A stretch of 64,000 bases of DNA from an uncultured Methanosarcinales archaeon (GCA_964602245.1 CAZRPY010000002.1:49833-113832); one strand, 5' to 3'. Shown: positions 25,029-56,566, numbered from the stretch's first letter. Notes: generated by a model from the sequence alone, not told the origin. Program-made: numbers and translations.

Positions 25029-25137
25029 ATTTGCATCACGAGCCTCGAATACGAGGCTATACATTAGTCCGCTAATCACCAATTTGACATTCATGATGCG
25101 GACAGATAAGTTGCGTGTTCGCAACCGTATGCAAATT
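25029..25137 (+). repeat. GC-rich TTGCAT..ATGCAAAT-bounded structured element, copy B
   Basis: aatttgcatcacgagcctcgaatacgaggctatacattagtccgctaatc...gcggacagataagttgcgtgttcgcaaccgtatgcaaatt; ends 40 nt before ribH ATG. Confidence 0.6.
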
Positions 25138-25176
25138 AAAAAGATAAGAATTAATAAATAAAAAGATTATAACAAA

Positions 25177-25587
25177 ATGCAAGAGAAAATAGGCATAGTT
25201 GTTTCACAGACTCATAAGCAAATTACTGAGAAAATGCTTGAATTAGCTGAAGATACTGCAAGGAAGTTGGATGTTAAAGTGCAGAAAGTTGTTAGAGTTC
25301 CTGGAAGCTTTGATATTCCTATTGCAGTTAAAATGCTTCTTGAGAAAGAAGATGTTGATGGGGTTGTAACATTAGGTGTGGTTATGCAAGGCGAGACAGA
25401 TCATGATGGTGTTATCGCTTACACTATGGCTGAAAAGATAAGTGAGCTTTCTTTGCTGTACAATAAACCAGTAGTTTTAGGTGTAAATGGCCCTAAGATA
25501 AGCCAAGAGCAGGCAATTGATAGGATTGGAAGAGCAAAACAAGTGACTGAGGCTTGTGTTGATTTGATAAGGACTTTGAAAGCATAA
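25177..25587 (+). CDS. ribH: 6,7-dimethyl-8-ribityllumazine synthase
   Basis: KIGIVVSQ...VRVPGSFDIPIAVK and GVVMQGETDHD motifs of lumazine synthase. Confidence 0.85.
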   Translation: MQEKIGIVVSQTHKQITEKMLELAEDTARKLDVKVQKVVRVPGSFDIPIAVKMLLEKEDVDGVVTLGVVMQGETDHDGVIAYTMAEKISELSLLYNKPVVLGVNGPKISQEQAIDRIGRAKQVTEACVDLIRTLKA

Positions 25588-25629
25588 AGTAGGAAACTTT
25601 TTAAATAAGTTCTTAACAAAACTGTAATA

Positions 25630-26454
25630 ATGGGGAAAGCTGACTTGCATATGCATTCTACTATTAGCGATTGTATTTTAACCCCACAAATGATCATAAC
25701 TCTACATAGAAAGAGAAATAGAGATTATATGGAGCATAATAAAGGTTTAAAATGGAGGGATGTTATTGCTATTACAGATCATGATGAAATAAAAGGTGCA
25801 CAAGAAGCTGCAGAGATTGTATATAAGAGTACAAAATGGAAAAGTATAGATCCTATTGTACTTGTAGGGGAAGAGGTAACAACATTGGAAGGCCATGTAT
25901 TGGCTATAAATATTAAAGAGCGTATTCCTCCTAGAATGAGTGCAGAAGAAACTATAGCAGCTATTCATGAGCAAAATGGCTTTGCTATTGCGGCACACCC
26001 ATATACTATTGCACATTACTTTTTAAAAAGGCAGAAGGGGCTACTTGGTGTAGGAAAGCTAATTTATGAGCTTCCTTTTGATGGTGTGGAAGTAATAAAT
26101 GCAAATATTACTGAAAAAATTCCAAATTTATGGCTGAAATATGTGTTAAATAATAATAATTTTGCTTTACTAGGAAATAGTGATGCACATTTTTCAACAG
26201 CATTTACTGCTAATAGCGATTTTGAAGGGGAAACTGCACAAGATTTATTTAAAGCTATTAGGAATAAGTCTACTACTCCACAAGGCCGTACTTACTCTTG
26301 GTTTGATATGGCTAGAGGTTATAAAGAGCACCAAGAAATTTTAAAAATTTGTGAAAGAGTAGAAGGAGTCACTTTACCAAATGCAGATATATGGCAGAGA
26401 GCTATGAATCCTGTTTTATTTAATTTATTGCAATATACATCAAAACTTTATTAA
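25630..26454 (+). CDS. PHP-domain metal-dependent phosphoesterase
   Basis: DLHMHS N-terminal motif and later histidine motifs (AAHP, DAH) of the PHP superfamily. Confidence 0.7.
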   Translation: MGKADLHMHSTISDCILTPQMIITLHRKRNRDYMEHNKGLKWRDVIAITDHDEIKGAQEAAEIVYKSTKWKSIDPIVLVGEEVTTLEGHVLAINIKERIPPRMSAEETIAAIHEQNGFAIAAHPYTIAHYFLKRQKGLLGVGKLIYELPFDGVEVINANITEKIPNLWLKYVLNNNNFALLGNSDAHFSTAFTANSDFEGETAQDLFKAIRNKSTTPQGRTYSWFDMARGYKEHQEILKICERVEGVTLPNADIWQRAMNPVLFNLLQYTSKLY

Positions 26455-26510
26455 TAATTTAAGCTAAACCTTTAAATATTAATATTACATATAGAAACTA
26501 ACTAATAATA

Positions 26511-27026
26511 ATGCTAACAGAAAGAGTAAATGACTTGGCAGAAAACTATTTAGCACCTGTTTCTTTAGGATTGGCTTCTCCATACGCTGCTCCAACAGCA
26601 AGGAGAGTAAGTAACCAATTATATGCCAGAGCTTTACATAAGGACAGGACAGAAGCTTGCACCCAAGTTAGTGTTTTAATTCCAGTTGCAACTGAAGGAA
26701 GATTAGAAGGGTTTATCAGGAGAATTAAAAAAGATTTCAGTTATCGTCAAGAGTCTACTTTCGAATTTTTTGAAGAAGCAAATGCTAGTAGAACTTGGTT
26801 ATTGTATAGAGCTAGCCAAACTTTGGGTTCTGCACTAACATTTGGATTAATTGGGTATGGGGTTGCTGAAATGCTACAACATCAGAATACAAAAGTATTA
26901 TTAGCAACTTTAGCTGCTATTGTTCTTGGAAATGCTGCTTCTTATGTTTATGAAAGAGTAAAAGGGACTCGTTTTACAATAGGATTGAGAAGAGAAATAC
27001 CTCTTAACCAGGAATCTTCATTATAG
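26511..27026 (+). CDS. hypothetical membrane protein
   Basis: 171-aa ORF with C-terminal hydrophobic segments. Confidence 0.3.
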   Translation: MLTERVNDLAENYLAPVSLGLASPYAAPTARRVSNQLYARALHKDRTEACTQVSVLIPVATEGRLEGFIRRIKKDFSYRQESTFEFFEEANASRTWLLYRASQTLGSALTFGLIGYGVAEMLQHQNTKVLLATLAAIVLGNAASYVYERVKGTRFTIGLRREIPLNQESSL

Positions 27027-27095
27027 ATTATGATTGCCTTTAATTAATAGAAAATGTAATAAAATTTTTAAATAGCGATTGAAAGACTTTTATTT

Positions 27096-27950
27096 ATGAT
27101 TATAACGAGAAGGGAATTTTTATCAATATCTGTTGTAGGAGGATTAGAGTTATCAAAAATAAGGAAATTTAATCCTTTCCAAGCAGTATTACATGCCAGT
27201 GACGCTTATGATCCTAAATTTGATTCCCCTTTTCAAGCAATCCTTAATGCAACTGTTAGGATAAAAAGGTATACATATTATAAAGATGGAAATCCGATTA
27301 TAAGAGTAGGAACTGGGTTTGTATATAAGAAAGATGGATATGCTTATAATATTTTAACAAATTATCATGTTATCCAAAATCTAGAGAGAGAAGGTATTGT
27401 TGAAGAAAGAGCTAATATAATTCTAAGGGATGACTCAATAGCATCTACTATAGTAAAGAAGGTTGATAGAGAAAAGGACTTTGCAGTAATTGGTTCAGCA
27501 CAATCTGAGTTAAGCGAAAAAGTTCTGCCTTCTGATTACCCATATTTACAATGGAATAATCCCACTTTAGAAGTCGGAGATAAACTTTTTATTGTAGGGT
27601 ATCAAGAGGGGATTACACTTGAAACTAGCATTGGCTATGTGACTTCTACAAAAAAAAAAGACATAGATAATGGATATAACCACTATGATGTTTGGTTTTT
27701 GTCTAACAGTAAAATAGGAAATAGTGGCGCATCTGTTCTAAAGGAAGTAAAGCATCAAAAATTTGGTACAGTTTATGAATATGTAGGTATGTTTCATGCA
27801 ACAGAAGAATGGCCAAAAAAGAAGATTAAGATTACTCCTATTGAAAATAGCTTAGCCCAAATATTAAAGATGGAAAAAAAGGTGGATGTAATATATAGGT
27901 CAAAGGCCATCCTTTTTTCAGAGTTTGCACATATGCTCAAAGCTGCTTAA
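27096..27950 (+). CDS. secreted trypsin-like (S1/DegP-type) serine protease
   Basis: Tat-like N-terminus (RREFLSISVVGG), TNYHVI His motif, GNSGASVL Ser motif. Confidence 0.7.
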   Translation: MIITRREFLSISVVGGLELSKIRKFNPFQAVLHASDAYDPKFDSPFQAILNATVRIKRYTYYKDGNPIIRVGTGFVYKKDGYAYNILTNYHVIQNLEREGIVEERANIILRDDSIASTIVKKVDREKDFAVIGSAQSELSEKVLPSDYPYLQWNNPTLEVGDKLFIVGYQEGITLETSIGYVTSTKKKDIDNGYNHYDVWFLSNSKIGNSGASVLKEVKHQKFGTVYEYVGMFHATEEWPKKKIKITPIENSLAQILKMEKKVDVIYRSKAILFSEFAHMLKAA

Positions 27951-27989
27951 TCAATAACATTTTTAAATAAACAAGGTTTACTTCTTCTT

Positions 27990-28643
27990 ATGAAAATAAC
28001 TTGGCTTAATCATGACTGTTTTAGGGTAAATACTATGGGGAAGGTAATTTATACTGACCCATTTGGCATAGATGAGCAGCAGGAAAAGGCTGATTTAGTG
28101 CTTATTTCTCATGGGCATTTTGACCATATGAGTAAAGATGATATAAAGAAAGTCATTAAACAAGAAACTAAGATAGTGACAAGTGAAGAGGGTGCTAAGG
28201 CTTTGAAATGCTTTTCCTTAAAACCTGGAGAAGCTAATGATTTTGATGGCATTAAAGTAGAGGGTGTTTATGCTTATAATATTAATAAGTTCAGAAGCTC
28301 TGGAGTACCTTTTCATCCAAAAAGTGAGGGGAGAGAGTATATTGGTTTTGTAATTACAGCTGAAGGAAAAAGAGTTTATCATGCAGGAGACACAGATGCA
28401 ATACCAGAGCTTAAGAATCTAAAGGCTGATGTTGCATTACTGCCTGTAAGCGGAATATATGTAATGACTGCTGAGGAGGCTTTAGAGGCTGTGAGGATGA
28501 TAAAACCTGAGGTAGCTATACCAATGCACTTTGGAGCTATAGTTGGCAGCCAAGCAGATGCATATGAATTTAAAAGGATGGTTGAAGAACAGACTAAGAC
28601 TAAAGTTGTAATTCTTGCTAAAGGAAAGAGTTATGAGTTTTAG
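27990..28643 (+). CDS. MBL-fold metallo-hydrolase
   Basis: LISHGHFDHM HxHxDH motif. Confidence 0.75.
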   Translation: MKITWLNHDCFRVNTMGKVIYTDPFGIDEQQEKADLVLISHGHFDHMSKDDIKKVIKQETKIVTSEEGAKALKCFSLKPGEANDFDGIKVEGVYAYNINKFRSSGVPFHPKSEGREYIGFVITAEGKRVYHAGDTDAIPELKNLKADVALLPVSGIYVMTAEEALEAVRMIKPEVAIPMHFGAIVGSQADAYEFKRMVEEQTKTKVVILAKGKSYEF

Positions 28644-28972
28644 TGTTTTAATTCTTTCTCTAAACTTGCTCTTTTAAATTGCTCATTAATTATTTTATCA
28701 AAAAGTTCTGCTATACTTTTAACATTAGGATTTTTCATGTTTAATTTGAATAATTTGGCATTTCCTATGTTTCTTGTGTGCACAACTAATTTTAATTTCT
28801 CAATCTCTGGCCATAATCTAAATAAGGTAACTCTGTTAATACCTGCTCCTTCAGCTATATCACCTATAGAATGGTCAAGTTCTCTTCCCTCTAACAAATA
28901 TTCTAAAACTCTGATTTTTGGTGTATCACCTAATAATTCTCTGAATATTGTTGGTTCATCTTGAAATTTCAT
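28640..28972 (-). CDS. winged-helix DNA-binding protein
   Basis: IGDIAEGAGINRVTLFRLWPEIE HTH-like segment; 110 aa. Confidence 0.45.
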   Translation of the reverse strand: MKFQDEPTIFRELLGDTPKIRVLEYLLEGRELDHSIGDIAEGAGINRVTLFRLWPEIEKLKLVVHTRNIGNAKLFKLNMKNPNVKSIAELFDKIINEQFKRASLEKELKH

Positions 28973-29067
28973 ATTAAGCTGATAAGATTAACTAATATAT
29001 AAATGTTTCTATTTTGTAATAATAGGATTGCATATTTGTAATATATCCGATAAGCTTTATATATCTA

Positions 29068-29358
29068 TTGCAGATTTCTAAGCCAATGACAAAATTTAGT
29101 AAAGAGGACCTAATAGCTATACAAAAGAAAATGATAAGGATGCTAAAGAACAAGAAGAAATTTGGTGGAGCACATACTGAGACTATCCATTTAAGGAATT
29201 GTGTGCCAAAACATTTAAGAGGGGAGAAAATTGTTGATGAAGCAATTAAAGATTTATTTAATACAGGAATTTTGATAAATAAACAATCAACTGGTGAAAA
29301 ACACTGTAGTTTAAACACTGCAAAGTTAAGAGAGATAGAAGAAATAGAAAAAAGTTAA
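29068..29358 (+). CDS. hypothetical protein
   Basis: 96-aa ORF. Confidence 0.3.
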   Translation: MQISKPMTKFSKEDLIAIQKKMIRMLKNKKKFGGAHTETIHLRNCVPKHLRGEKIVDEAIKDLFNTGILINKQSTGEKHCSLNTAKLREIEEIEKS

Positions 29359-29366
29359 ATTTTCAA

Positions 29367-29669
29367 ATGATACCACTAAAAGAACAACAGTTAGAGAAGC
29401 TTAGAAGATTGACTTTTCAGGAAATAAAGCTTGTATTTAGCTTTAAGGATAAAGAAAACTTGCAAGAGCCTGAATATATTAAAATATATGCGGATGATAT
29501 ACTAATAGCTGTTGCAAATGGTGATGGATTAAAGAAGAGTGAGAAAGCACTAAACCTTATACCTCTGGAAATAAAACCTAAAGTTGAATTGGATTTAAAG
29601 AAATTAGAGATGATTTACTCAGATGCTGTTTCGTTTGCTACTTATCATCCTGAAGAGCATGAGCATTGA
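29367..29669 (+). CDS. hypothetical protein
   Basis: 100-aa ORF following previous with 8-nt spacer. Confidence 0.3.
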   Translation: MIPLKEQQLEKLRRLTFQEIKLVFSFKDKENLQEPEYIKIYADDILIAVANGDGLKKSEKALNLIPLEIKPKVELDLKKLEMIYSDAVSFATYHPEEHEH

Positions 29670-29681
29670 CACACTATTGAC

Positions 29682-30131
29682 TTAATGCTCAATAAGATGT
29701 TGGCCCGTAATTTTATAAAAAATACTATCCCAACCAGAGTGAATTATTCTATTAGGATAATCTATTATCTGTGAAGTTTTATAAAAATTATAAGCTAAAG
29801 CCAAATTAGATAATCCTGCTAAATAACTCATTGTACCCCTAACATATGTTAGCACATGATGAAAGTTAAATATGTTCTTCTCAATTCCTAGTACACTATC
29901 AATAGTATAAGTAAGTCCTAAAAATAAGGCTGCTTGAGCAGTCCATCGTATAGTATCTCTCACTAAAGCTCTTTCAAGACCACCCTCTTTTATATCCTCT
30001 TTTAGTTGTATATTAGTTTCACGAACGTCTGGTTTTCTTAGAACTAGATAAGTACTTAGAATATCTACTAGATTACCTCCTGTTAGAAATACAAAATCAT
30101 AGCCTATATCATTTGCAATAGTAGATATCAT
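29682..30131 (-). CDS. hypothetical membrane protein
   Basis: 149 aa, multiple hydrophobic segments. Confidence 0.3.
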   Translation of the reverse strand: MISTIANDIGYDFVFLTGGNLVDILSTYLVLRKPDVRETNIQLKEDIKEGGLERALVRDTIRWTAQAALFLGLTYTIDSVLGIEKNIFNFHHVLTYVRGTMSYLAGLSNLALAYNFYKTSQIIDYPNRIIHSGWDSIFYKITGQHLIEH

Positions 30132-30173
30132 TCACATAAAAAATTTAGGGAAGTATAAAAAGATTATGACAAT

Positions 30174-32120: not shown

Positions 32121-32180
32121 ATTGAGAGCTTATTTTATAGTTTTCTTATATAATTTGTGGTTTATTGCTTTTCATTAATA

Positions 32181-32468
32181 TCATTCACTGCCTATTAAAT
32201 ATAATTCTTTTATTTCATCATCAAATAAGTATCCTGAACTATATGTATGAACTACTAAATCTCTTTCCACCCTATTTGAATCGGTTCTTTGCACTAACTT
32301 CTCTAACTGGCCACAATGCACTTGATTATCTTTATCCTTAACTATTACTATTTGAGGTTTACCAAAACCTAGTATTCTTTCTATATGAATTTCAAACATT
32401 CGTAAAAGTTCTAAATGGTCTAGATAAACCTTGACTAACTTGAGTTCTGACATTTTAAATACCTCCAT
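32181..32468 (-). CDS. hypothetical protein
   Basis: 95-aa ORF. Confidence 0.3.
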   Translation of the reverse strand: MEVFKMSELKLVKVYLDHLELLRMFEIHIERILGFGKPQIVIVKDKDNQVHCGQLEKLVQRTDSNRVERDLVVHTYSSGYLFDDEIKELYLIGSE

Positions 32469-32918
32469 TAATCTTACATTTAATTTGCAAAGATTTCAAA
32501 AGAATCAAATTTCTTAACAAGACTTTAGAACCAAAACATCCTATAGGTTTACAAGACCCAGAACGAGTTGATGTCTAAAACCTTTTGGGCATTAAGAAAC
32601 AATGGAACAGCTTTTAGGCTGTTACTGTAGTTGTAGAAGTAGTCATATTGAAAATTCCATATACTGCAAAAACTTTATTTTTATTATTCATCCAATATAG
32701 AAAAGATAACTTATATTTAAAATTTGCTATGGGCATGGTTAAAATAGATTTATCTGTCATATAGCAATTTTAACTTTAATTTCATATTTAAGCTCTTATA
32801 GAATTAGTTAATAAAGCTTTTCTTATGAAATGGCTATTATGCTCCAGAACGAAACGAAGTGGAGTGAGAATGCAATGGGGGGTTCGAGCCGAAGGCGAGA
32901 AAGTCCGCCGTAACCCAC

Positions 32919-33623
32919 CTATAATTCAATTTCAGATTGATTTTCATCAAGAATTTTATAAGTTATATCTCCACCACAAAATTTTTGAACTAAATCTTTC
33001 AATTCTTTTGTAGCGTCTTCAATTTCTTGTTTTGTTACAGGAAGAAGTCCCTCTATAACAAGAAAACAATTCTTTGTTTCTTCTGTAAACTTTGTCCTGT
33101 CAGCCTCACGCCAATTCCATCTTCTGCAAATTGCAGAAATATTATCCTTGTAAATAACTTCTCCTGCGTGAGGCGGTCTTGGTTCTTTATCTCCAAGGAG
33201 CAAAACCGCTGGTTCGTTTGGTTCTGCAAAGGTTAAAACAACATCTCCCTGTATTTTATCTACATCTTCGCCACCAACAGGAACCATGTGTTTAAGGGAG
33301 ATGAAATTGTAAATATCAACCAATTTATTGATATGTCTCAAATTTACTCCTTGTAGAACCAATCTATAAAGATTTTCAACAGAGGATTTGTTTTCTTTCG
33401 GTTTTGCTCCGAAAGCAGAATAGGTTTTTCTCCAAACATCTATTTTTGGAGTTTGGGACAAAGTTTCAGTATTATATTTTGCTCTGATATTGTTTTCTTG
33501 TTCTCTGATTTCTTTTTGGACTTCTTCCTGTGTTCCGGAATTGTCCAGATTTTTACAAATTACAACTCCGATTGTTGAACCGGGAAACTTCTCAAAAATT
33601 TTGTGGTCAATTTTAAATTTCAT
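32919..33623 (-). CDS. B3/4 domain protein (PheT-editing-domain-like, tRNA-binding)
   Basis: DVWRKTYSAFGAKPKE...NLYRLVLQG...VDIYNFISLKHMVPVGGEDVDKI pattern typical of B3/4 domain proteins. Confidence 0.6.
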   Translation of the reverse strand: MKFKIDHKIFEKFPGSTIGVVICKNLDNSGTQEEVQKEIREQENNIRAKYNTETLSQTPKIDVWRKTYSAFGAKPKENKSSVENLYRLVLQGVNLRHINKLVDIYNFISLKHMVPVGGEDVDKIQGDVVLTFAEPNEPAVLLLGDKEPRPPHAGEVIYKDNISAICRRWNWREADRTKFTEETKNCFLVIEGLLPVTKQEIEDATKELKDLVQKFCGGDITYKILDENQSEIEL

Positions 33624-34588: not shown

Positions 34589-35083
34589 TTATTTTTCCAT
34601 TAATTCTCTTAAAGTACGCAATTTACCTTGACCAGGAATAGATATCCTAACTTGAACTCGATGGGCTGGTGTTTTACCAGAACTTTCTACTAAATTTAAA
34701 TACGCTTGAAGAGGATAATTATTGACTTCTACATCACCACCATATCTTCTTACGACTCGTTGGACTGCTTGTACTACTTTAACCCATCTTTGATAACATG
34801 CTTTATCATATGCTTTGGACCTTTCAGGATCGGCTAGTAATGCCTGAAATTCTGCTTGATTACTTGGGCGCGGACTTCCCTTTGGAGCGAAACGGTAAAA
34901 ATAAATTTCAGCAGTATCCCCTCCAAATCCATTTCTGCCTAGAATGGCTTCAGCATAATCTCCTGAGCCTGCTTTTTTCAAGTCTAGAACTTCTCTAGCC
35001 GCTGCATATATAGTATTTTCTAGACCTATTATCATAGATGCAGTTCCCTGTTTTATTTGAGCTAATTCTCTATCCATATTCAA
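34589..35083 (-). CDS. hypothetical protein (GC-richer than surroundings)
   Basis: 164-aa ORF, no recognisable motif; compositionally distinct. Confidence 0.35.
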   Translation of the reverse strand: MNMDRELAQIKQGTASMIIGLENTIYAAAREVLDLKKAGSGDYAEAILGRNGFGGDTAEIYFYRFAPKGSPRPSNQAEFQALLADPERSKAYDKACYQRWVKVVQAVQRVVRRYGGDVEVNNYPLQAYLNLVESSGKTPAHRVQVRISIPGQGKLRTLRELMEK

Positions 35084-35369
35084 ATCTAGAATATAATAGA
35101 GTATTTAAATCTTTGTATTTTTACTACTTGTAAAGCATAACATTATAACTTAAACGCCAAACCCTTCTTACTTTAAACCCTTCAGTTTCTCGAAGATAAC
35201 TTTCAGCAAAAATTCCAACAACTTGGCAAGATGGGGGTTGTCCCTTGTTGAATGCAATATGATAGAAACCTTTATATACCTAAATATTAAAAGTAATAGA
35301 ATTAATAATAGAAGTATTAATAATAGAACTAATAGAATTAGTAATATAGAAATATAATGACATAAAATA

Positions 35370-35579
35370 ATGGCAGAAAAGGAAGTGCCTAAGTTTGTAG
35401 GGAAGGCTAAGCTTACAAAGCAGGGCCAAGTTACTTTGCCTCTTGAAGGCAGGAAAGAGTTAGATATAGCTCCTGAATCTGAGGTTTATTGGTATAGGTT
35501 AAATAATTGCCTAGTTGTTGTTAAAGATATTATAAATCCAAAGGAGTTGGTTAATTATCTGTTTAAAAAGAAGAAATAG
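35370..35579 (+). CDS. SpoVT/AbrB-type DNA-binding protein
   Basis: KLTKQGQVTLPLEGRKELDI swapped-hairpin signature; preceded by aatagaaNtaat tandem repeats. Confidence 0.55.
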   Translation: MAEKEVPKFVGKAKLTKQGQVTLPLEGRKELDIAPESEVYWYRLNNCLVVVKDIINPKELVNYLFKKKK

Positions 35580-35637
35580 GATATGATTAATAATAAAATA
35601 AGAATTAACGTTAAGCAAGTTAAAAATACTGATAAAA

Positions 35638-35750
35638 TAATTAGCATCAACGACGCCATCTACGATGGCTGTGCGAGTAGTCCACCTATCAGGGCTGTAA
35701 CAACTCATGTTGCGGACAGATATAGCAAGGTGCGAAGAAAGTGCAAAGTA
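35638..35750 (+). repeat. degenerate copy C of the TTGCAT..GCAAAT element
   Basis: ttagcatcaacgacgccatctacgatggctgtgcgagtagtccacc...gttgcggacagatatagcaaggtgcgaagaaagtgcaaag; overlaps a probably spurious 61-aa ORF. Confidence 0.5.
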
Positions 35751-35804
35751 AGAAAAATTAAAAAGTAAGATAAAAGGTGCAAATTAAGTCAATAAAAAGA
35801 AAAT

Positions 35805-35867
35805 AAACAAAAGTGAGAGTAATAAAAAAGATAAATAAAACCAAAGATATAATTTGAACTAAATAAT
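35805..35867 (+). repeat. 63-nt direct repeat (copy 1) upstream of VWA gene
   Basis: aacaaaagtgagagtaataaaaaagataaataaaaccaaagatataatttgaactaaataata; 62/63 identical to 41809..41871. Confidence 0.7.
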
Positions 35868-35901
35868 AACTAAAAAATAATCATGCTATAAAAGAGGTAA
35901 A

Positions 35902-40666: not shown

Positions 40667-40707
40667 ATAGAAAGGTGATAGAATAGAAAAAGTATAAAAA
40701 TCAAAAT

Positions 40708-40870
40708 AATTTGCATTAACGACGCCTCCACAAAAAATCCCTTGGATTTTTGTGTCCCAAAAATGCTTTGCATTTTTTAGGATTTCAGAGGCTGTGCGAG
40801 TAGTCCGCTTTCGGTGATGGAACTTTTCATGTTGCGGACAGATATAGCAATTGTGAAGAAAGGTGCAAAT
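40708..40870 (+). repeat. copy D of TTGCAT..GCAAAT element with expanded hairpin insert
   Basis: aataatttgcattaacgacgcc + insert with ccacaaaaaatcc/ggatttttgtg hairpin + gctgtgcgagtagtccgctttcggtgatggaacttttcatgttgcggacagatatagcaattgtgaagaaaggtgcaaat. Confidence 0.6.
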
Positions 40871-40928
40871 AAAATAAATAATAAGGAAAATAAAGGTTGA
40901 GAAATTAAGAAAGGATTAAGAAAATACT

Positions 40929-41808: not shown

Positions 41809-41871
41809 AACAAAAATGAGAGTAATAAAAAAGATAAATAAAACCAAAGATATAATTTGAACTAAATAATA
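41809..41871 (+). repeat. 63-nt direct repeat (copy 2) upstream of MoxR gene
   Basis: aacaaaaatgagagtaataaaaaagataaataaaaccaaagatataatttgaactaaataata followed by GGAGGTG RBS. Confidence 0.7.
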
Positions 41872-41884
41872 GGAGGTGTAGTTT

Positions 41885-42820: not shown

Positions 42821-42844
42821 AGTGAAGATTTTATCAATTATTAC

Positions 42845-43101
42845 TTGCATTAACGACGCTCATTTCGAAAATCAAAGATTTTCGAGACTAGGAAATTCTC
42901 AATTTCCTATGCTACGTGAGCTGTGCGAGTAGTCCGCTTTCGATGATGGAACTTTTCATGTTGCGGACAGGTTGAAGAACTATGTTCCGAGACCTTAGGA
43001 AGCAGGGCTTCCTACAGGTTTGACAAAGTGTGAAGATACCCAAGAAAATCTTTGATTTTCTGGGCACAAAAAATCTAAAAGATTTTTTAGTGAGTGCAAA
43101 T
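42845..43101 (+). repeat. copy E of TTGCAT..GCAAAT element, strongly expanded (about 257 nt) with several extra hairpins
   Basis: cttgcattaacgacgc...gctgtgcgagtagtccgctttcgatgatggaacttttcatgttgcggacag...gtgcaaatt; inserts contain tcgaaaatc/gattttcga, aggaaatt/aatttcct, aggaagc/gcttcct, gaaaatc/gattttc stem-loops. Confidence 0.6.
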
Positions 43102-43145
43102 TAGCTAAATAAAAAGATGAAAAATAATATATAAAATTTTACAAG

Positions 43146-47602: not shown

Positions 47603-47642
47603 GATTAGTTTTAAATATACTTAACTTTTCCTTTCTTTTATT

Positions 47643-47755
47643 GGGCTCATAGCTCAGCCTGGTAGAGCACTTGACTCTTACTGAACCAAGTTCAGGCCTT
47701 TTGAACTGGTTCAAAAGTAATCAAGGGGTCCTGGGTTCGAATCCCAGTGAGCCCG
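47643..47755 (+). tRNA. tRNA-Lys(CUU) with 39-nt intron at canonical 37/38 position
   Basis: Manually folded cloverleaf. Acceptor GGGCTCA/TGAGCCC, D-arm GCTC-AGCCTGGTA-GAGC, anticodon stem CTTGA/TCAAG, loop C-T-CTT-A. Intron spans 47681-47719 and contains two hairpins. Variable loop GGGTC, T-arm CTGGG-TTCGAAT-CCCAG, discriminator G. CCA is not encoded. Confidence 0.7.
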
Positions 47756-48458
47756 TTTTATATTCTTGAAGTTTTAGGATGTTTTTAGGATTAGAAAATC
47801 CAATTAATTGGGTATATTGCTCTATTTTTTCGTGTCCGCTTAAGTATAAATAGTTAGTAATGTACGGACGTTTAGTAATAGAGTGTATCATTGCACAATC
47901 TGTCTTAATACTAACCTTTAATCCAAGCAAATTAAAAGCCTTTTGACAATCTTGAATAAGTTTCTTACTGGCAAAGTTAAGTTTAACGACTGGGTAATTG
48001 CGCATCTTGATTTGGAAAGAACCGTCAGAATCAATTAATCCTCTTAAACACGCTCGAATAAATTTCGTATCACTCCAAATAACGATTGGCAGTCCGATAT
48101 TATCTTTTCTGCCTCTTGGCAATCCAATAATAGTAGTATAGAATTCAAATAAACCTTTTGAGTCTCTTATCAAAGCACATGTATTTTTCTTTTTAATTAG
48201 AAAGGAGAAATTAAGATTATAAAGTTCCTTTTTTAAGTTTTTTACGTAAATTTCATAATAAGTTCTATCAGAAGTAGCATTACCATAGCATTGTATCTCA
48301 TTGGATGTTGACGTTTTCCTTATAGTTTGATGTAGGCAACCATCACCAACCATAATTCCAATATCTTCAGCGAGAGCTTCATTCATCTCTGAAGGAAGTG
48401 TGAGACCTCTCAATAAGTCTTTTCTACTGAAATTTAATCTTGATAAATCGAATTTCAT
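47721..48458 (-). CDS. free-standing double-motif LAGLIDADG homing endonuclease
   Basis: Two LAGLIDADG motifs (IGIMVGDGCLH and LRGLIDSDGSF) in 245 aa; 3' end overlaps the tRNA-Lys 3' exon antisense by about 35 nt. Confidence 0.75.
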   Translation of the reverse strand: MKFDLSRLNFSRKDLLRGLTLPSEMNEALAEDIGIMVGDGCLHQTIRKTSTSNEIQCYGNATSDRTYYEIYVKNLKKELYNLNFSFLIKKKNTCALIRDSKGLFEFYTTIIGLPRGRKDNIGLPIVIWSDTKFIRACLRGLIDSDGSFQIKMRNYPVVKLNFASKKLIQDCQKAFNLLGLKVSIKTDCAMIHSITKRPYITNYLYLSGHEKIEQYTQLIGFSNPKNILKLQEYKTGSLGFEPRTP

Positions 48459-48762
48459 TAAATCACCGAAATTTATTCATTTGAAACTATGTAAATGATT
48501 TTGCTTATATAGCTCACGTCGGGAGATGTCCAGTGACCAGTGCACAAAGCTCTGTAAAATGCAAGAATTTAGTCTTATTAGGGCTTATAAACCAGAGGAC
48601 ATCCACTGGACCCAAAATCATAATTTTATAGTTGAAATCCCGTATATGGTGATTTATGAAAGAGTTTCAACTAAATTGAGACAACCTAGCGAAAGTCCCT
48701 ATGGGCCTGCTTTCTATTAGATTTATATTGGTATTAACTAGTGTGATAATTATAATAAAAAT

Positions 48763-48872
48763 AACTTGCATCACGAGGCTCTCTAAGAGCCTATACAAAG
48801 GTCCGCTAATCACAATAGTAATGTGCTCTAGCGGACAGACTGGCATGTTGCATAGTGCAACCGTTTGCAATG
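48763..48872 (+). repeat. copy F of TTGCAT..element
   Basis: aacttgcatcacgaggctctctaagagcctatacaaaggtccgctaatcac...gcggacagactggcatgttgcatagtgcaaccgtttgcaatg; hairpin GTTGCA/TGCAAC covaries with GTTGCG/CGCAAC of copies A/B/G; lies upstream of lysK. Confidence 0.6.
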
Positions 48873-48946
48873 AATAGTAATATTAATACTGTTCCTGTAT
48901 TCTAAAAGAATAACTTTTATATATAGTCATAAACCCTATAAAATGT

Positions 48947-50611: not shown

Positions 50612-50693
50612 TATTTTCTAGATTTTGTCACTGAGATGGTATGATTGAAGAAGAGAAAAATATATAAGAAAGATATTTTTAAGGCTGAATTAG

Positions 50694-52271
50694 ATGGATG
50701 AAGTAACTGGACAACAATATAGTGAGATAATAAAAGAAAATCTAACTAATGTAGTACATTCTACCTTTATTCCAGAGTTTGGCTTTCCTTTTAATGGGAA
50801 GGTTAGAGATATCTATGATAGAGGAAATGATTTATTGATGGTAACTAGTGATAGAATTTCTGCATTTGACATTGTTCATTCTAGAAGAATCCCTTTTAAA
50901 GGTGCTGTTCTTAATGGACTTTCTTTATTTGGTTTTAAATTGAGTGAGGATATTATAGCTAATGCATTGATTTCGGCACCAGATCCTTATGTTCAAATAC
51001 AGGAAAGATTAGATAATTTAGGATTTGAATTTGTTGTGAGAGGATATATATGGGGTTCAATTGCTGAAGCTTACGAATCTAATGTAAGAGAAATATATGG
51101 CATTAAATTACCTGAAGGGCTATTAAGGTATCAAAAATTAGATGAACCACTATTTACGCCTACTACTAAAGCTCCAAGACCATATCATGATGAACCAGTC
51201 ACTTTAGAGCAGATGGTTAATGGATTTCAAGCTAAATATGGGTGGGTTGATGGATTAGCTGATAAATATGGCCATGATAAAGCAACAGAAATAGTACAGT
51301 ATGTAAAAGATGTATCTATAAGATTATATAGAAGAGCCCATGAGCATGCATTGTCAAGAGGGTTGATTTTTGTAGATACAAAATACGAATTTGGTATAGA
51401 TAAAGATGGTAAAATAAAGTTAATTGATGAAGCTAATACTCCTGATTCTTCCAGATTAGTGGATTTGACTGAGCACAGAGAAAAATGGTCTATTATTGCT
51501 AGTTTCATGCAGGAATTTTCTAGCAAATTCAGTAATGTTTCTAAATTATTACAAGAGCAACCTTTTTTAAAAATAACTGAGCTTTCTAAGGAATATGTAA
51601 GAGATAGATTAAGGGAACTTGGATATAAGAAGGGAGATACTATACTTCCTATGTTGAGTGATGATGATGTCACAGAAACAAGCTTAAGATACATAGAGAC
51701 TTATGAACGATTTACTGGCCAGAAATTTGATTTTGTAAGAAGTGAACTAGCTACTGGAGCAAGACTGATGAATAATCTTGTAAAAGCAGGTATTGCCAAA
51801 GGATATTGTGCTATTATTGGAGCTGGTTCTGATAGTGATAAAGAACATATTGGAAAGATTGTTAAATCTCTTGAAGAATACGGGATACCCTATCAAGTGA
51901 GAATTAAATCTGCGCATAAGCAAAAGGATGTTATTCCAATAGTAGAGTTCTATAACGAGAGTCTTGAACCATTAGTATGGATTGCTGTTGCAAGTCGTAC
52001 TGATGCTTTATCAGGCACAGTGTCATATCATTCAGTGCATCCTGTAATAAGCTGTTCTCCAGATGGGATAAATATGAGCTGTCTTAATAATCCGCCAGGA
52101 AGCCCGAACGCTACTATCGTTGATCCAAAAAATATTGGGAAATATGTTGCACAAACTTTCAGTTGGATAGATCCTAAGTTAAAAAAAAAGATTATAGAAT
52201 TAAATGAACAAAAGAATAAATCTTTAGAGGAAGCAGATAAAAAAGCGATTGCAGGAGAACTATTGAACTGA
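50694..52271 (+). CDS. fused SAICAR synthetase (PurC, N-terminal) and N5-CAIR mutase/AIR carboxylase (PurE, C-terminal)
   Basis: N-terminal GKVRDIYDRGNDLLMVTSDRISAFD (PurC). C-terminal CAIIGAGSDSD...IKSAHK...IAVASRTDALSG (PurE) in one 525-aa ORF. Confidence 0.8.
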   Translation: MDEVTGQQYSEIIKENLTNVVHSTFIPEFGFPFNGKVRDIYDRGNDLLMVTSDRISAFDIVHSRRIPFKGAVLNGLSLFGFKLSEDIIANALISAPDPYVQIQERLDNLGFEFVVRGYIWGSIAEAYESNVREIYGIKLPEGLLRYQKLDEPLFTPTTKAPRPYHDEPVTLEQMVNGFQAKYGWVDGLADKYGHDKATEIVQYVKDVSIRLYRRAHEHALSRGLIFVDTKYEFGIDKDGKIKLIDEANTPDSSRLVDLTEHREKWSIIASFMQEFSSKFSNVSKLLQEQPFLKITELSKEYVRDRLRELGYKKGDTILPMLSDDDVTETSLRYIETYERFTGQKFDFVRSELATGARLMNNLVKAGIAKGYCAIIGAGSDSDKEHIGKIVKSLEEYGIPYQVRIKSAHKQKDVIPIVEFYNESLEPLVWIAVASRTDALSGTVSYHSVHPVISCSPDGINMSCLNNPPGSPNATIVDPKNIGKYVAQTFSWIDPKLKKKIIELNEQKNKSLEEADKKAIAGELLN

Positions 52272-52738
52272 TTAGGTCAAATATAATCAAAAATGCCATA
52301 ATCTCAGTTTCCGATAAAAGAAATCTAGCTCTTCATCACCTAGAGAGGCTATTATAGCAGCAATTAAGAGTAAAAATATTAGACTTGGATTGGGTATAGA
52401 ATAGGGTAAAGAAAATAAATAAAGACTACTAACTTTAATTTTTGCTTGTATTAGTTTGTATTATATACTTTACTATAGTTAACTTTTTAAACTTAGTAAT
52501 AATACAATCATAATCTGAGCCTATTGGAAATCCAATATTAATGGAGGTGGGGATATTTTTTATATATTTTATATAAAAGCGATAAATTTAAAAAGAGATT
52601 TGACTTATTGATGCTTATAGAGTGTAATAATATTGATTTAAGTAGATTGTAGTAGAGTAAAACTTCAAATAAGCTTTACTAAATAATGAGGAAAAGAGGT
52701 TGATATAGAAGTGATTAATAATATAAAAGGAATTTACC

Positions 52739-53581
52739 ATGGCAAGATCTAAGGGAGATGATTTGGGTAATAAATTTGCGAGATATTTAGTAGAAGCGAG
52801 TGGTTTTGGTGCTATAGTACGGCAAATAGCCAAAGAGGTAAGAGACCCTGTTGAAGATACAGGTAAACATAATATTCGTAATTCTGAAGAAGAAAGATTT
52901 GCTGAATTCTTGAGTGATGCAGCATTGCCAAGGAATGCTCATAGTTATACAGCACCTATGAGTCAAGATAAATCTGACATTGTAAGGGATAGAGATGAGC
53001 CAATACTATTAAATCCGCAAATTGATCACTTGACTAACATCATTCTAGGTACGAGAGAACGTAAAGATGGTATTACTGAATATGTTGAGAACTTAGATAG
53101 ATTTTGGGCAGCACAATATGCAGCCACTATACAAGCTTTTACATTGTTAACAGATTATCATAGACATAATAACAGACCTAATTATATTCCAGGTTATGAG
53201 GAGTATCTTGCTGGAAGATTTCTTATGTATAGGAGGTTAGTTGATGCTATAAAAATAGTTATGCCTGATTTAAAGGGAAGAAAAGCTATAGAGGTTGGCG
53301 GAGGAAGTGGCATAAGTCTTGCTATGTTAGCGCAAAATGGTGCTGAAGTAACTAATCTTGATATTTCAGAAATTGCATTAAAGTATTTTGAGTGTCTTGC
53401 TGGGCATTATAATGTTAAAAATAAAATCAATACAGAAAGAGCAGATTTCTTTAAAGGTGACCCTGAACTAAGTAATAGATTTGACTTGACTTATAATGTT
53501 GGTGTATTTGAACATTTAACAAGAGATGAACAATCTCATCTATTAGAAGAAATGGTGAGAATCACTGCTCCTAGTGGTTGA
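52739..53581 (+). CDS. SAM-dependent methyltransferase with long N-terminal domain; ends at TGA that is in frame with next ORF
   Basis: EVGGGSGISLAMLAQNGAEVTNLD motif I, ...RITAPSG then TGA at 53579-53581. Confidence 0.55.
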   Translation: MARSKGDDLGNKFARYLVEASGFGAIVRQIAKEVRDPVEDTGKHNIRNSEEERFAEFLSDAALPRNAHSYTAPMSQDKSDIVRDRDEPILLNPQIDHLTNIILGTRERKDGITEYVENLDRFWAAQYAATIQAFTLLTDYHRHNNRPNYIPGYEEYLAGRFLMYRRLVDAIKIVMPDLKGRKAIEVGGGSGISLAMLAQNGAEVTNLDISEIALKYFECLAGHYNVKNKINTERADFFKGDPELSNRFDLTYNVGVFEHLTRDEQSHLLEEMVRITAPSG

Positions 53582-53584
53582 GTT

Positions 53585-53986
53585 ATGGGATCAGTTCCAA
53601 ATCCTAAGAGTCCTTATTATAAACTGATTCAAGAAAGAGAAGAAAAAGTTCCAAAAGATAAAAGACTCCCAATGCCTTTTGTGGAATATGTCGATCCTGT
53701 CATATTATTAAAAGGCGCTGGATTAGAGCCAGCAAAAGACGGAAAATATGCACAGGGTTACACTCAGATTGCACCGCCTACTAGAATTAAACCAGGTTTA
53801 ATAAGTCTAGAAGATTCTGGATTTTTTAGAGACTACTTGTCTTTTGATCCTGGAAAAACAACAATGAAAACATTGTTAGGAGTTTGGTATCTTTTAGAAG
53901 ATAATGCCCAAAAAAATGCCCAGAGTATGTATATATTAGAAAAATATGGCATGTTTACTCATGCATTTGGTAGAAAACCTGGATAA
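53585..53986 (+). CDS. probable C-terminal continuation of the preceding methyltransferase
   Basis: Same frame as 52739..53581, separated by a single TGA + GTT; would read ITAPSG-x-VMGSVPN, resembling the LKPGG-type post-II motif. Confidence 0.45.
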   Translation: MGSVPNPKSPYYKLIQEREEKVPKDKRLPMPFVEYVDPVILLKGAGLEPAKDGKYAQGYTQIAPPTRIKPGLISLEDSGFFRDYLSFDPGKTTMKTLLGVWYLLEDNAQKNAQSMYILEKYGMFTHAFGRKPG

Positions 53987-54075
53987 GATTAAGAGATAGC
54001 ACTCTAATAGTATAATCTACTTTCTAGTAATTAAAGTGAAAAGATTTATAAAATCATTTCTCTTCCTAAATTAAT

Positions 54076-54645
54076 ATGCTAGAACTCTATTTAATAAGGC
54101 ATCCAAAAACTGTTTATAATGAAGAAAGAAAAATACAAGGACAGTTAGATGTAGAATTAATACCAGGATGGGAGGAAAGTGTAGATTCTCTTACAGAGAA
54201 ATTAGCTCTGCAGGGGGAATTTAGTGCCTTTTTAACTTCTGACTTAATGCGAGCAAATAAAGTCGCATATAGAGTTGTTGAGCGTTTAATAAGGAAACAT
54301 GGTAAGCCATTAGTTCTACGCTCTACTCCAGATCTAAGAGAAAGGCATTGGGGTGTATTACAAGGAAAAAGTTATGACGAAGTTGATACACAAGGCAAAG
54401 ATATCCATCATTATCTATTGGAACTAGACCAGGTTGAAGGAGGAGAAAGCTTTGCTGCTATTGAGGCAAGGGTGAAAAGAGTTGATGCTTATCTTAGAGG
54501 TATTCAAGGAGATAGAGTTTGTATTATTGGACACCAATTTACAAATACTTATTTATCTAATTTTGAATTAGAGGGGAATATACTTGCTAGACCTTATGAA
54601 GATTGGCCTCATCTACTAATAAAACAGATATCATTTCCTATATAA
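54076..54645 (+). CDS. histidine phosphatase family protein (phosphoglycerate-mutase-like)
   Basis: LYLIRHPKT (RHG-type catalytic motif) N-terminus and internal His motif (IGHQF). Confidence 0.7.
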   Translation: MLELYLIRHPKTVYNEERKIQGQLDVELIPGWEESVDSLTEKLALQGEFSAFLTSDLMRANKVAYRVVERLIRKHGKPLVLRSTPDLRERHWGVLQGKSYDEVDTQGKDIHHYLLELDQVEGGESFAAIEARVKRVDAYLRGIQGDRVCIIGHQFTNTYLSNFELEGNILARPYEDWPHLLIKQISFPI

Positions 54646-54662
54646 ATGACATTGTTGAAAGA

Positions 54663-55604
54663 TTAGTACTCCAAAGCCATTCTTGTTACTTTCAAGGTAT
54701 AAAGAATTTCAACTATTCGTTTCATGTTCATTAAAAGCATAATTTCATCTTTACTTAATTTTTTAGATACGAGTTTTATATTCTTTAAAATTTGATATCT
54801 GTCCCAGCTTATTTTTTCTATCATTTTAAAATCGAATTTATAAAAAAGAGCATGATAATCTTCAAGCGAGGTATTAATTTGATTTAATATACTTTCGCAG
54901 GCTTTTGAAATTATAATATTAGAGCTAATTATATCTCTAGCGCTTTCCTTTAGTGTGTCATTTATATTATCTAATGACTCAATTGTGTGATACAGTAAAG
55001 CAGTTTTTTTGTAATCTGGGTAAATACCTTTATTCAGCAATCTCAGTGCATTTGCCATGAATTTAGTAATAGTATTATGTTTTTCTTCTAAACTTTCTAC
55101 TAGATACTTATCTCTTTTTACAGCTCCTCGTATCAAATCACTACTTGCATCTGTAATAAGTAGGAATATTCTTCGTAATATTAAATCAAAATCCTTTATA
55201 GAACTTTCTGAGAGCACTTTAAGTATACAAAAATTTTCCTTCTGCTGGATTATTTCAATACCAGTAAGTCTATTAACCTCTGTATGTATATCAGATAGAA
55301 CTTTGACTTTTTTACCTAACCTATGATGATCTGCAAGAGGGTTATTAAAGTTTAGTTTGATATCATTGTAACCTCTTATATATAATACTCTAATTAAAAA
55401 CATAAAAGAGTCTCTGTCTAGACCGCTTATATCAACCTCTATACTCCCAGGATCTTGGGTTTTTTCAGTTTCAATTAATAGTCTATTACCCTGCTCTTCA
55501 ACCTCAACCTCATCCCCTTTTTTAAGATTATATTTTAATGTCCACTTTCTTGGAAGTGAGACTAACTGAGTAGAATCTGCTATCTGTATAACTTTACGTT
55601 TCAT
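54663..55604 (-). CDS. AbrB/SpoVT N-terminal domain fused to helical (PhoU-like?) domain protein
   Basis: KVIQIADSTQLVSLPRKWTLKYNLKKGDEVEV swapped-hairpin N-terminus followed by about 230 aa of predicted helical sequence. Confidence 0.4.
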   Translation of the reverse strand: MKRKVIQIADSTQLVSLPRKWTLKYNLKKGDEVEVEEQGNRLLIETEKTQDPGSIEVDISGLDRDSFMFLIRVLYIRGYNDIKLNFNNPLADHHRLGKKVKVLSDIHTEVNRLTGIEIIQQKENFCILKVLSESSIKDFDLILRRIFLLITDASSDLIRGAVKRDKYLVESLEEKHNTITKFMANALRLLNKGIYPDYKKTALLYHTIESLDNINDTLKESARDIISSNIIISKACESILNQINTSLEDYHALFYKFDFKMIEKISWDRYQILKNIKLVSKKLSKDEIMLLMNMKRIVEILYTLKVTRMALEY

Positions 55605-55961
55605 TATAACCCCCTTTTATATAGCCTTTAAAGAGACCTTATAATAGCTTTTTAGACTGTTAAGCAACTTTATAATTATATAAAAATGAGTTTATATTTA
55701 AACTTTTCTATATTCTAGTATAGAACTTTATAAAAACACTATAATTATAAGAATATTATAGGACTCTATATACTCGGATTTGAAGATTTTAAGCTATTTA
55801 AAGGCTAAATAATAATCTTATTCTGTATATAAAGGATTAAATTTCTTAATATTAGTTTAATCTTTAAATAAAATATAAATTATAAGCGCAGATTATATAA
55901 GTCACTATTCCTTCTATTGCTTTTGTTCTCATAAAGAGGGTGCCAATACTTAAAGGAGGGG

Positions 55962-56153
55962 GTGAATATGGAACTAGAAGTTGTAGATGATGAGTTCGAA
56001 GAATCTGAAGAAGATGACCTGAACATCTACAATAAAAAGATAAGAGAAGAGGCACTCGAAGATGATGAGATAGCTGATTGGGAAGAAGGGATAATGGTAG
56101 GCTATGATTTGGAAGATGCATTGATGGAAGGTTATGAAGATGCTGTGTTATAA
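55962..56153 (+). CDS. small, extremely acidic protein (63 aa, about 45% D/E)
   Basis: Strong RBS aaaggagggggtgaatATG; sequence MNMELEVVDDEFEESEEDDLNIYN...EGYEDAVL. Confidence 0.45.
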   Translation: MNMELEVVDDEFEESEEDDLNIYNKKIREEALEDDEIADWEEGIMVGYDLEDALMEGYEDAVL

Positions 56154-56452
56154 GGGCTTAGAGCTAAAGATTCCCCTTTATTTCTATAAAGGCTTTATAA
56201 TAGTCTTATAAGGCTTATAAAGGCATTCTACAAAGCGAAAAGTATATATACTTTAGAGACTATTTTATTCTCGGTGGAGATCCTCTTTTTGGGAGATTTT
56301 TCATCAAAATTTTACTAAAGATTTAATGCTAAAAAATTAAAGATTTAGTCAAAACTATAGTAAGAAGATTTTGATAAAATAAATTTAATATTAAGAGTAA
56401 TAATTTGCATTTGATTTATAGGATAATAGTTATAATAAAAGATGTAACAACA

Positions 56453-56566
56453 ATTTGCATTAACGACGCCAACTTCGTTGGCTGTGCCAGTGGTCGGCTA
56501 ATCAATGAATATAACTTAGAAGAAGCCGACAGATAAGTTGCGTGTTCGCAACCGTTATGCAAATTA
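56453..56566 (+). repeat. copy G of TTGCAT..ATGCAAAT element
   Basis: caatttgcattaacgacgccaacttcgttggctgtgccagtggtcggctaatc...gccgacagataagttgcgtgttcgcaaccgttatgcaaatt; ends 43 nt before gyrB ATG; a solo aatttgcat lies at 56402. Confidence 0.6.

Follow-up and report, generated by a model that had tools for sequence, protein, structure and literature searches.

The DNA analyzed here, referred to as the window, is a stretch of 64,000 nucleotides recorded as belonging to an uncultured Methanosarcinales archaeon (GCA_964602245.1 CAZRPY010000002.1:49833-113832). Its GC content is approximately 33%, and against this background seven copies (A to G) of a GC-rich repeat bounded by TTGCAT were identified. 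A covariance model (R1), which was trained on five of the copies and applied to the 64-kb window, returned exactly seven matches with scores of 38 to 126 bits and nothing further above noise; these lie in the same places as in the initial annotation. The core sequence CTGTGCGAKTAGTCCGC was found five times when up to three mismatches were allowed, compared with 0.02 expected matches. The copies constitute a real family, previously undescribed beyond a bulk count of MITEs (miniature transposable elements with inverted repeats) and without an entry in Rfam. Seven copies per 64 kb correspond to a density of 109 per Mb.

Copies of the repeat and their neighbouring genes

Copy A (9937-10052, minus strand; 122 bits) has a thioredoxin-like gene (10115-10762, minus strand) on one side and ccdA/DsbD_TM (9131-9838, minus strand) on the other, both assigned by Pfam, with the ATG of ccdA 98 nt further on. 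Copy B (25026-25139, plus strand; 104.8 bits) separates two genes which were assigned to the DMRL-synthase fold by Pfam (24503-25000 and ribH, 25177-25587), and it ends 37 nt upstream of the ribH ATG. Copies A and B have flanking motifs in common: TAAAAAGATAA to either side and, at the start codon, TATAACAAAATG. Copy C (35637-35751, plus strand; 93.5 bits) begins 57 nt past a small AbrB-like open reading frame (ORF; 35370-35579) and is followed after 150 nt by batA (35902). Copy D (40706-40873, plus strand; 60.9 bits) occupies the spacer between a gene for a 172-aa protein and a DUF7502 gene, the ATG of which is 55 nt on. Copy E (42840-43104, plus strand), a match to the covariance model with a length of 265 nt, is situated in the MoxR/DUF58 spacer, 41 nt ahead of the ATG. 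Copy F (48761-48875, plus strand; 79 bits) is the most diverged copy in the window; the spacer in which it lies is divergent and is flanked by a LAGLIDADG ORF and the gene for a class I lysyl-tRNA synthetase, the ATG of which is 71 nt on. Copy G (56450-56567, plus strand; 126 bits), which serves as the exemplar, lies in the long leader of gyrB, 41 nt ahead of the ATG. All copies had at first been placed 40-65 nt from a start codon, a range which is too narrow since the gaps actually extend from 37 to 150 nt.

Incomplete copies were also present. A motif scan revealed a solo 5' end, ATAATTTGCATT, at 56400-56411 (plus strand), 39 nt 5' of copy G; similar solo ends precede full copies at loci L007, L028 and L073 of related genomes. 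The possible remnant noted in the initial annotation near 60001-60035 is plausible as a degraded copy, TTGCATGCGATTAGTCTGCGACGCC, at 60003-60030 (plus strand), and its GTCTGCGACGCC matches the variant family of JAHFTA01 (locus L163). An extra 3'-end module, GGTGCAAATTAAG, follows copy C at 35772-35787 (plus strand), and repeated TGCAAAT modules follow copy A at 9909-9919 (minus strand). Tandem 3' modules were found at L106 and L159 as well.

Architecture of the element

The core of the element is approximately 110 nt, and with add-on hairpins the copies range from about 95 to 265 nt. Most copies are bounded by a terminal inverted repeat (TIR) of approximately 11 bp, ATAAYTTGCAT/ATGCAAATTAT, so that the terminal pairing recognized earlier is present and longer than had been stated. 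The copies have no conserved ORF. The predicted fold is a four-way junction consisting of the TIR helix (P1), a hairpin that varies (P2), the conserved joining strand CTGTGCGATTAG, the stem GTCCGC/GCGGAC with its long loop (P3), and then either a hairpin (P4) or other 3' modules. In copy G these stems correspond to 56450-56460/56557-56567 (P1), 56468-56482 (P2), 56493-56498/56525-56530 (P3) and 56537-56552 (P4). The four-way fold was the minimum free energy or centroid structure of copies B, F and G, with z-scores from -3.4 to -6.2 (the latter for copy B). The shared architecture proposed from the first reading holds for these three copies, but its second hairpin, P4, is not universal: it was identified only in A, B, F and G, while copies C and D have a different 3' module and copy E a hairpin array.

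The inserts of copies D and E are, as had been suggested, built of perfect stem-loops. Hairpin P2 of copy D is enlarged by two perfect A/T-rich stem-loops (40733-40751 and 40759-40777), and copy E carries hairpin arrays within P2 and the 3' part, with six perfect hairpins. Of the 16 perfect hairpins in the window (stem of at least 8 bp, loop of 3-5 nt), 8 fall within these two copies. The add-on stems, A/T-rich in both copies, form perfect palindromes around loops of 3 nt. Such palindromes look more like a signature at the level of DNA than of RNA, and they too argue against taking the pairing as a sign of a functional RNA.

Several more specific structures were considered and rejected. A pseudoknot between GCUGU of the joining strand and ACAGC of loop L3 was not kept in copies B, F and G or in those of JACPIF01 (L165), and the ATG of a small ORF starting in loop L3 was missing in about a third of the copies. 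The defining nucleotides of hammerhead-like, K-turn/C/D-box, loop E, bulge-helix-bulge intron and tRNA-like motifs were absent or unconserved between copies when the conserved strands were compared by eye with the consensus features; ARAGORN returned nothing.

Host and distribution

Based upon homologues of GyrB and MoxR, the window belongs to a metagenome-assembled genome (MAG) of the Woesearchaeota/Nanoarchaeota (DPANN). Exact-pattern scans were carried out on 185,579 species genomes and on Joint Genome Institute (JGI) metagenomes. Among the species genomes, real copies were found only in GCA_964491335.1, the record of which is mislabelled Methanosarcinales and the GyrB of which is 84% identical to that of the window; the remaining 47 matches were chance occurrences in GC-rich bacteria. 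The metagenome copies came from Ga0213870 (the closest relative, with 90% GyrB identity), Ga0137796, Ga0114945 and Ga0209399. Combined, the pattern scans gave 38 matches representing 31 distinct sequences from at least four sister lineages. No match was obtained in the phages, plasmids and viral contigs searched.

Diverged versions with the same architecture were located at the MoxR-syntenic loci of JAHFTA01 (L163; 2140-2290 and 4290-4420) and JACPIF01 (L165; 8192-8313, 9795-9925, 10990-11125 and 15455-15563). Their P3 is GTCCCCGA/TCGGGGAC, the joining strand CTGTGCGAGTAG is still recognizable, and P1 is altered on both strands, from TTGCA/TGCAA to TTACA/TGTAA or TTGGA/TCCAA. Model R1 was too narrow for these types: two were detected with 22-24 bits, while the others were missed even with filters off and were identified through synteny and by eye. 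Both types are more GC-rich, and copies within one of these genomes resemble each other more than they resemble the copy at the same site elsewhere, which indicates concerted evolution or turnover. In a relative with a MoxR identity of 81%, long A-rich spacers of the same kind occur, but none contains the element. The family is confined to one clade of Woesearchaeales.

The Rfam search which had been proposed as a check returned no relevant match. At the gathering threshold the sole match in the whole window was a tRNA, and none of the matches up to E = 10 was relevant for copy G, the diverged L165 copies or the other GC islands.

Base pairing and covariation

In the model-guided alignment 86% of the helix cells were paired, compared with 77% in shuffled alignments, and 66 cells were changed on both sides, compared with 21; none of 500 shuffles reached the observed values. 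In slid controls pairing fell to 27-39%. In a MAFFT alignment which included the JACPIF01 copies, P3 was 98.5% paired, with CG, GC and AU at one position and GC and CG at another, and at each position of P2 four to five types of pair occurred. Covariation was strong in P2 and P3 and, for P1, was seen between lineages. Based on these statistics, P2 and P3 are truly constrained to pair.

The initial annotation had taken such covariation as evidence of a functional RNA, a reading which did not hold. An RNA under selection is expected to tolerate G-U pairs far better than A-C mismatches. The helices contain 26 G-U pairs and 31 A-C mismatches, and the fact that G-U is no commoner argues against the usual interpretation of the covariation. 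Furthermore, P2 of copy G is shared with a non-orthologous copy of a sister lineage (L071a), while the gyrB ortholog L060 has another P2 and another P3, and the MoxR-DUF58 spacer harbours different subfamilies in spite of 96% identical MoxR proteins. On the evidence of these sequences, the stem variants are old subfamilies distributed across non-orthologous sites, and not the result of compensatory change in place. The G-U test, the shared variants and the differing or empty orthologous sites together argue against RNA selection acting locus by locus.

Transcriptional context and orientation

A 14-nt matrix for the B recognition element (BRE) and TATA box, rAAAnnTTTAWATA, was trained on 39 genes of the window. 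In most genes the BRE/TATA begins 35-39 nt ahead of the ATG, typically at 36 nt, from which the genome appears to be largely leaderless. Operon-internal genes without an element mostly have a GGAGG-like Shine-Dalgarno sequence.

No sense-strand promoter site scoring at least 7.5 was detected in the spacers which carry copies A, B, D and E. Each of these copies separates a functionally linked pair: thioredoxin-like/ccdA, the two DMRL-synthase-fold genes, the 172-aa gene/DUF7502, and MoxR/DUF58, respectively. A strong canonical promoter, GAAACCTTTATATA (35265-35278, plus strand; score 15.6), precedes the unit composed of the AbrB-like ORF, copy C and batA, and no further sense-strand promoter was found between it and batA. 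The gyrB promoter, GAAAAGTATATATA (56237-56250, plus strand; score 8.8), is kept at L001, L003 and L005 and would read through copy G, which lies within a gyrB leader of 336 nt. Only copy F is separated from the next ATG by a canonical promoter, that of the synthetase (48910-48923; score 13.1). Six of the seven copies are consequently predicted to be transcribed in the sense direction within mRNAs, either as operon spacers or as part of the gyrB leader; of the options listed at the outset, that of a transcribed leader is the one which the promoter scan supports, with operon spacers added to it. At several other loci a canonical promoter follows the element, or the element precedes a T-run located at the 3' end of a gene, so the family is not restricted to 5' leaders.

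Across all loci 26 of the 29 copies are co-oriented with the downstream ORF, and in co-directional spacers the ratio is about 12 to 1; the orientation bias thus extends to other genomes. Six copies of the window occupy co-directional spacers and all six point in the direction of the gene. The claim that all seven do so is sound for these six informative copies, the orientation of copy F being uninformative because its spacer is divergent, and the chance probability of 1 in 64 originally quoted was by coincidence about right. Avoidance of T-run terminators was rejected as the cause of the orientation, stretches of at least five T being absent from both strands of the core. Nearly all copies are flanked 5' by ATAAY, a motif that the spacers contain 1.6-2.5 times as often on the sense strand as on the antisense strand. 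This asymmetry can account for part of the orientation bias, but probably not for all of it.

A leader or riboswitch specific to one kind of gene was rejected. The genes downstream include ccdA, ribH, batA, DUF7502, DUF58, lysS, gyrB, an iscS-like gene and others, and sites are gained and lost among close relatives.

Could the element instead bring a promoter to the gene behind it? This would involve a BRE/TATA 5' of TTGCAT, as in the proposal that an upstream AT box is the element's own TATA, or one formed by the GCAAAT 3' end and its A/T-rich flank. In some copies of related genomes, good BRE/TATA sites do occur 15-16 nt (L122b, score 8.2; L126, 9.2) or 26 nt (L007b, 10.4) ahead of the element, GCAAAT followed by TATAAAAA resembles the BRE/TATA of this genome in about half of the copies, and inverted 3' halves face divergent genes. 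However, the 3' ends averaged 0.1 on the matrix and the reversed 5' ends 1.5, whereas real promoters score 9-15, and the best upstream matches are weak in the window and scattered between -2 and -58. Together with the spacers of A, B, D and E, which have no qualifying site, and with copies more than 70 nt from an ATG, such as F, which are followed by a separate canonical promoter, these values make a mobile promoter very improbable. Of the promoter-carrying MITE originally envisaged, the MITE-like features are present, namely the 11-bp TIR, the subfamilies, the fragments and the variable occupancy of orthologous sites described below; the promoter is not supported.

The same background-like scores and scattered matches render free-standing small RNA genes unlikely. 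A set of paralogous genes, each specifying a discrete RNA of about 110 nt, would agree with GC islands in an AT-rich genome, with the stable fold and with the conserved pairing, and to this extent the earlier suggestion correctly recognized a genuine repeat family. It does not agree with the lack of a promoter at a fixed distance and of an oligo-T terminator after the element, where the sense flanks are A-rich, nor with the numerous truncated or rearranged copies, the lack of a G-U preference and of an Rfam match, and we regard it as the most improbable of the explanations considered.

The gyrB leader is itself of note. In all relatives, including those free of the element, the promoter AAAGCGAAAAGTATATATA is followed by a conserved leader segment, GATTTAGTCARAACTA (window 56232-56360; L001 9870-10000; L003 5200-5330; L005 1030-1170), which is unusual for an otherwise leaderless genome.

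Turnover and mobility

Comparison of orthologous sites revealed both presence and absence of the element. The gyrB leader contains it in the window and at L005 (90% GyrB identity) and lacks it at L001 and L003 (84-85%). The sites of copies C, D and F are empty in JACPIF01 (L165): the spacer equivalent to that of copy C is 53 nt long, and that of copy D 31 nt. Site D has only 3' fragments at L159 and a related copy at L163. Conversely, L165 carries copies in the VWA-172aa, DUF7502-MoxR and MT-PTH2 spacers, all of which are empty in the window.

Insertions within the element are shared between unrelated loci. P2 has an identical expansion of 36 nt at L007, L028 and L064, and loop L3 of L070, L072, L110 and L158 has an insertion of 41 nt in common. 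Truncated copies, solo 5' ends before full copies, repeated 3' modules after them and inverted 3' halves are frequent. The fragments, the tandem partial copies and the common insertions indicate copy-and-paste spread or gene conversion.

One possible mover is a transposon which depends on single-stranded DNA, of the IS200/IS605 or REP/RAYT type, of which the family would be a remnant; P2 and P4 would then be read as folded DNA, and insertion 3' of ATAAY, an asymmetric target which would be frequent solely on the A-rich sense strand, would by itself set the orientation. The hairpins situated about 12 nt inside each end, the ATAAY flank of nearly all copies, the undetected target duplication, the strand-symmetric conservation of pairing and the perfect add-on palindromes with their 3-nt loops are consistent with this proposal. 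The flanks are moreover A-rich in the element's own orientation, even in the three anti-oriented copies (L143 and L064a among them). The 11-bp TIR is out of place here, since the IS200/IS605 and REP/RAYT families have none, and a P2 which varies in sequence from copy to copy and a P4 which is often replaced are a poor fit to a single sequence-specific HUH enzyme. As no Y1/HUH domain was identified in the window and the strand asymmetry of the target motif is only 1.6-2.5 to 1, an origin of this kind is considered improbable.

Origin and possible role of the family

The explanation which we favour, at a little above an even chance, is a structured repeat of the MITE/REP/BOX kind which spreads by copying or gene conversion, is selected for the integrity of its fold in the copies that propagate, and is carried in mRNAs passively or with some generic usefulness. 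The initial annotation was, in our judgement, right to caution that a plain MITE might be involved. According to this explanation a non-coding, non-autonomous family would multiply and be homogenized within genomes by copy-and-paste, gene conversion or both, inserting into long A-rich spacers inside transcription units and almost always in the sense orientation. From such a location the copies would be carried in mRNAs as leaders, as intercistronic spacers and occasionally in 3' untranslated regions. The hairpins would be retained since an intact structure serves propagation, through selection on master copies, and not because each locus has a use for them. In its RNA form the stable junction would have generic effects only, for example the protection or partitioning of transcript segments; effects of this sort have been proposed for the bacterial REP/BIME, ERIC, BOX and Correia elements.

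Several observations weigh against this explanation. No target-site duplication was detected, the best 8-mer flank match being 6.88 within the same copy and 6.76 between different copies, although the AT-rich flanks would mask duplications of 2-4 bp. None of the ORFs of the window has a domain of a transposase, integrase or reverse transcriptase, and no pairs of ends 0.7-3 kb apart, as an autonomous partner might show, were found in approximately 300 kb of sequence from the clade. The sense strand folds slightly better than the antisense strand, by a mean of -1.56 kcal/mol (21 versus 9 copies, p = 0.02), a weak signal. The MoxR-DUF58 spacer is filled in the five closest lineages (the window and four others with 89-96% MoxR identity), so presence at that site could be favoured. 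Finally, the sense bias of about 12 to 1 exceeds the ATAAY asymmetry, which hints at a constraint at the level of RNA.

These last three observations are also what might be expected of a selected cis-acting RNA module, in which the junction, once inserted, would serve a purpose within the mRNA for which the copies are retained. Candidate tasks are a processing or stability determinant between cistrons and an insulator which keeps an A-rich start region devoid of a Shine-Dalgarno sequence unstructured. Six of the seven window copies do lie in transcription units, 37-150 nt before start codons which have no canonical promoter and mostly no Shine-Dalgarno sequence, and pairing is kept across the diverged types. 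On the other hand, G-U is not favoured over A-C, the downstream genes are functionally unrelated, and sites are gained and lost between close relatives. Copy F, those at L149, L073 and L007b, and the pre-PTH2 copies of L163 and L165 are located 5' of a canonical promoter and hence outside the downstream mRNA. The relative with 81% MoxR identity has long A-rich spacers of identical type, lacking a Shine-Dalgarno sequence and the element, from which it follows that those genes are translated without need for it. A cis-acting module selected at its loci is thus thought rather unlikely. It is doubtful, too, that the family represents something new in kind, whether a portable cis-acting RNA module or an undescribed orientation-specific mover which reads folded nucleic acid. 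Such a module would spread as mobile elements do but be retained in the sense orientation through its action in the transcript, for example as a processing or stability mark between cistrons or as a platform for proteins, in a DPANN archaeon with otherwise leaderless genes.

Comparison with known repeats

The pneumococcal BOX, with its boxA-(boxB)n-boxC organization, and RUP are short non-coding intergenic repeats with complementary ends, present at about 100 copies per genome. BOX elements are modular, vary in the number of internal hairpins, have stable predicted structures as RNA and are transcribed together with their neighbours. The elements described here are likewise intergenic, with complementary ends, modular hairpin units, a stable predicted fold and predicted co-transcription. 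They differ from BOX and RUP in having no sequence similarity to them, an archaeal host, a four-way core with a conserved joining strand, and a strong sense bias.

The Correia elements of Neisseria (CREE/NEMIS) are MITE-like repeats of 100-160 bp, located near gene starts and co-transcribed, the inverted repeats of which pair in the mRNA. The MITE-like size between terminal inverted repeats, the placement at gene starts and the co-transcription are points of resemblance. In Correia elements the inverted repeats measure 26 bp, TA is duplicated and outward promoters have been documented, whereas in the present family the inverted repeat is 11 bp, the duplication is undetectable and the promoter-matrix scores are poor.

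REP/BIME, REPIN-RAYT, ERIC and MIRU elements are structured extragenic repeats found in transcripts, which evolve as populations that keep the integrity of their hairpins. The present repeats share the extragenic location, structure and carriage in transcripts and, like mycobacterial MIRU, lie in operon spacers in the direction of the genes. MIRU carry small coupled ORFs, and no conserved ORF is present here; REP units, palindromes with a length of 20-40 nt, depend on a RAYT gene, and none was seen here.

Classical MITEs have an identifiable parent insertion sequence and target duplications, neither of which was found for this element. Archaeal MITEs, such as SM1-4 of Sulfolobus, resemble it in being non-autonomous and in possessing TIRs. 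A bulk MITE-Tracker census, which gives no structure, orientation or family description, includes a Woesearchaeal genome with 105 MITEs per Mb (10.1101/2024.01.18.576219), and the density of the present element matches this figure.

DPANN genomes are small and streamlined, yet this clade devotes roughly 1-2% of its DNA to one structured repeat in operons and leaders. The family offers a natural system in which to follow how repeats invade the transcribed spacers of compact archaeal genomes. It also allows covariation arising from element-level selection and subfamily turnover to be separated from covariation which signals a functional RNA, a practical warning for the discovery of RNA motifs through GC islands in AT-rich archaea. 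In addition, the repeat may be used as a lineage marker and recombination detector for Woesearchaeal MAGs. A locus-level cis-acting RNA function is the reading which would make the family important; if true, DPANN archaea would have in it their first widespread RNA module of the intercistronic kind.

Other features of the window

An exact 54-nt A-rich repeat, beginning GAGAGTAATAAAAAAGATAAATAAAACC, is present at 35815-35868, 5' of batA, and at 41818-41871, 5' of moxR, in one operon. The A-rich spacers themselves seem to have been duplicated or homogenized.

An intron-containing tRNA gene at 47643-47755 (plus strand) was recognized by Rfam with 59 bits but not by ARAGORN; at its 3' end it overlaps the terminal part of the LAGLIDADG homing-endonuclease ORF on the other strand (47721-48458, minus strand). 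The GC-rich segment 59655-59775 has a tRNA-like start, GCCCCGTAGTCTAGTGGTCAAGGAT, ends with GTCTGCCCGGGGCT, and was negative with both ARAGORN and Rfam; possibly it is a tRNA which has several introns or is atypical in another way. The ORF at 34589-35083 (minus strand), which has a TTG start, a GC-rich stretch and no match in Pfam or Rfam, lies directly behind a strong canonical promoter (score 12.0) and might specify a non-coding RNA instead of a protein.

An ORF of 149 aa (20654-21103, minus strand) without a Pfam match is enclosed by imperfect GC-rich inverted repeats (20575-20654 and 21165-21290) of about 80 nt or more, GTTAAGC...AAAGTTCAGGCGGC...AAAGGCGGG. The region 20575-21290 may represent a further mobile unit of small size with no relation to the TTGCAT family.

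Genes of toxin-antitoxin type are numerous and include four PIN-domain ORFs, a UPF0175/DUF3368 pair and a long MazE/AbrB-domain protein, at 1599-2060, 7655-8014, 13602-13961, 22656-23027, 21334-22130 and 54663-55604. A cluster of genes with the thioredoxin fold was identified at 8020-9129, 10115-10762, 15022-16839 and 19227-19814.

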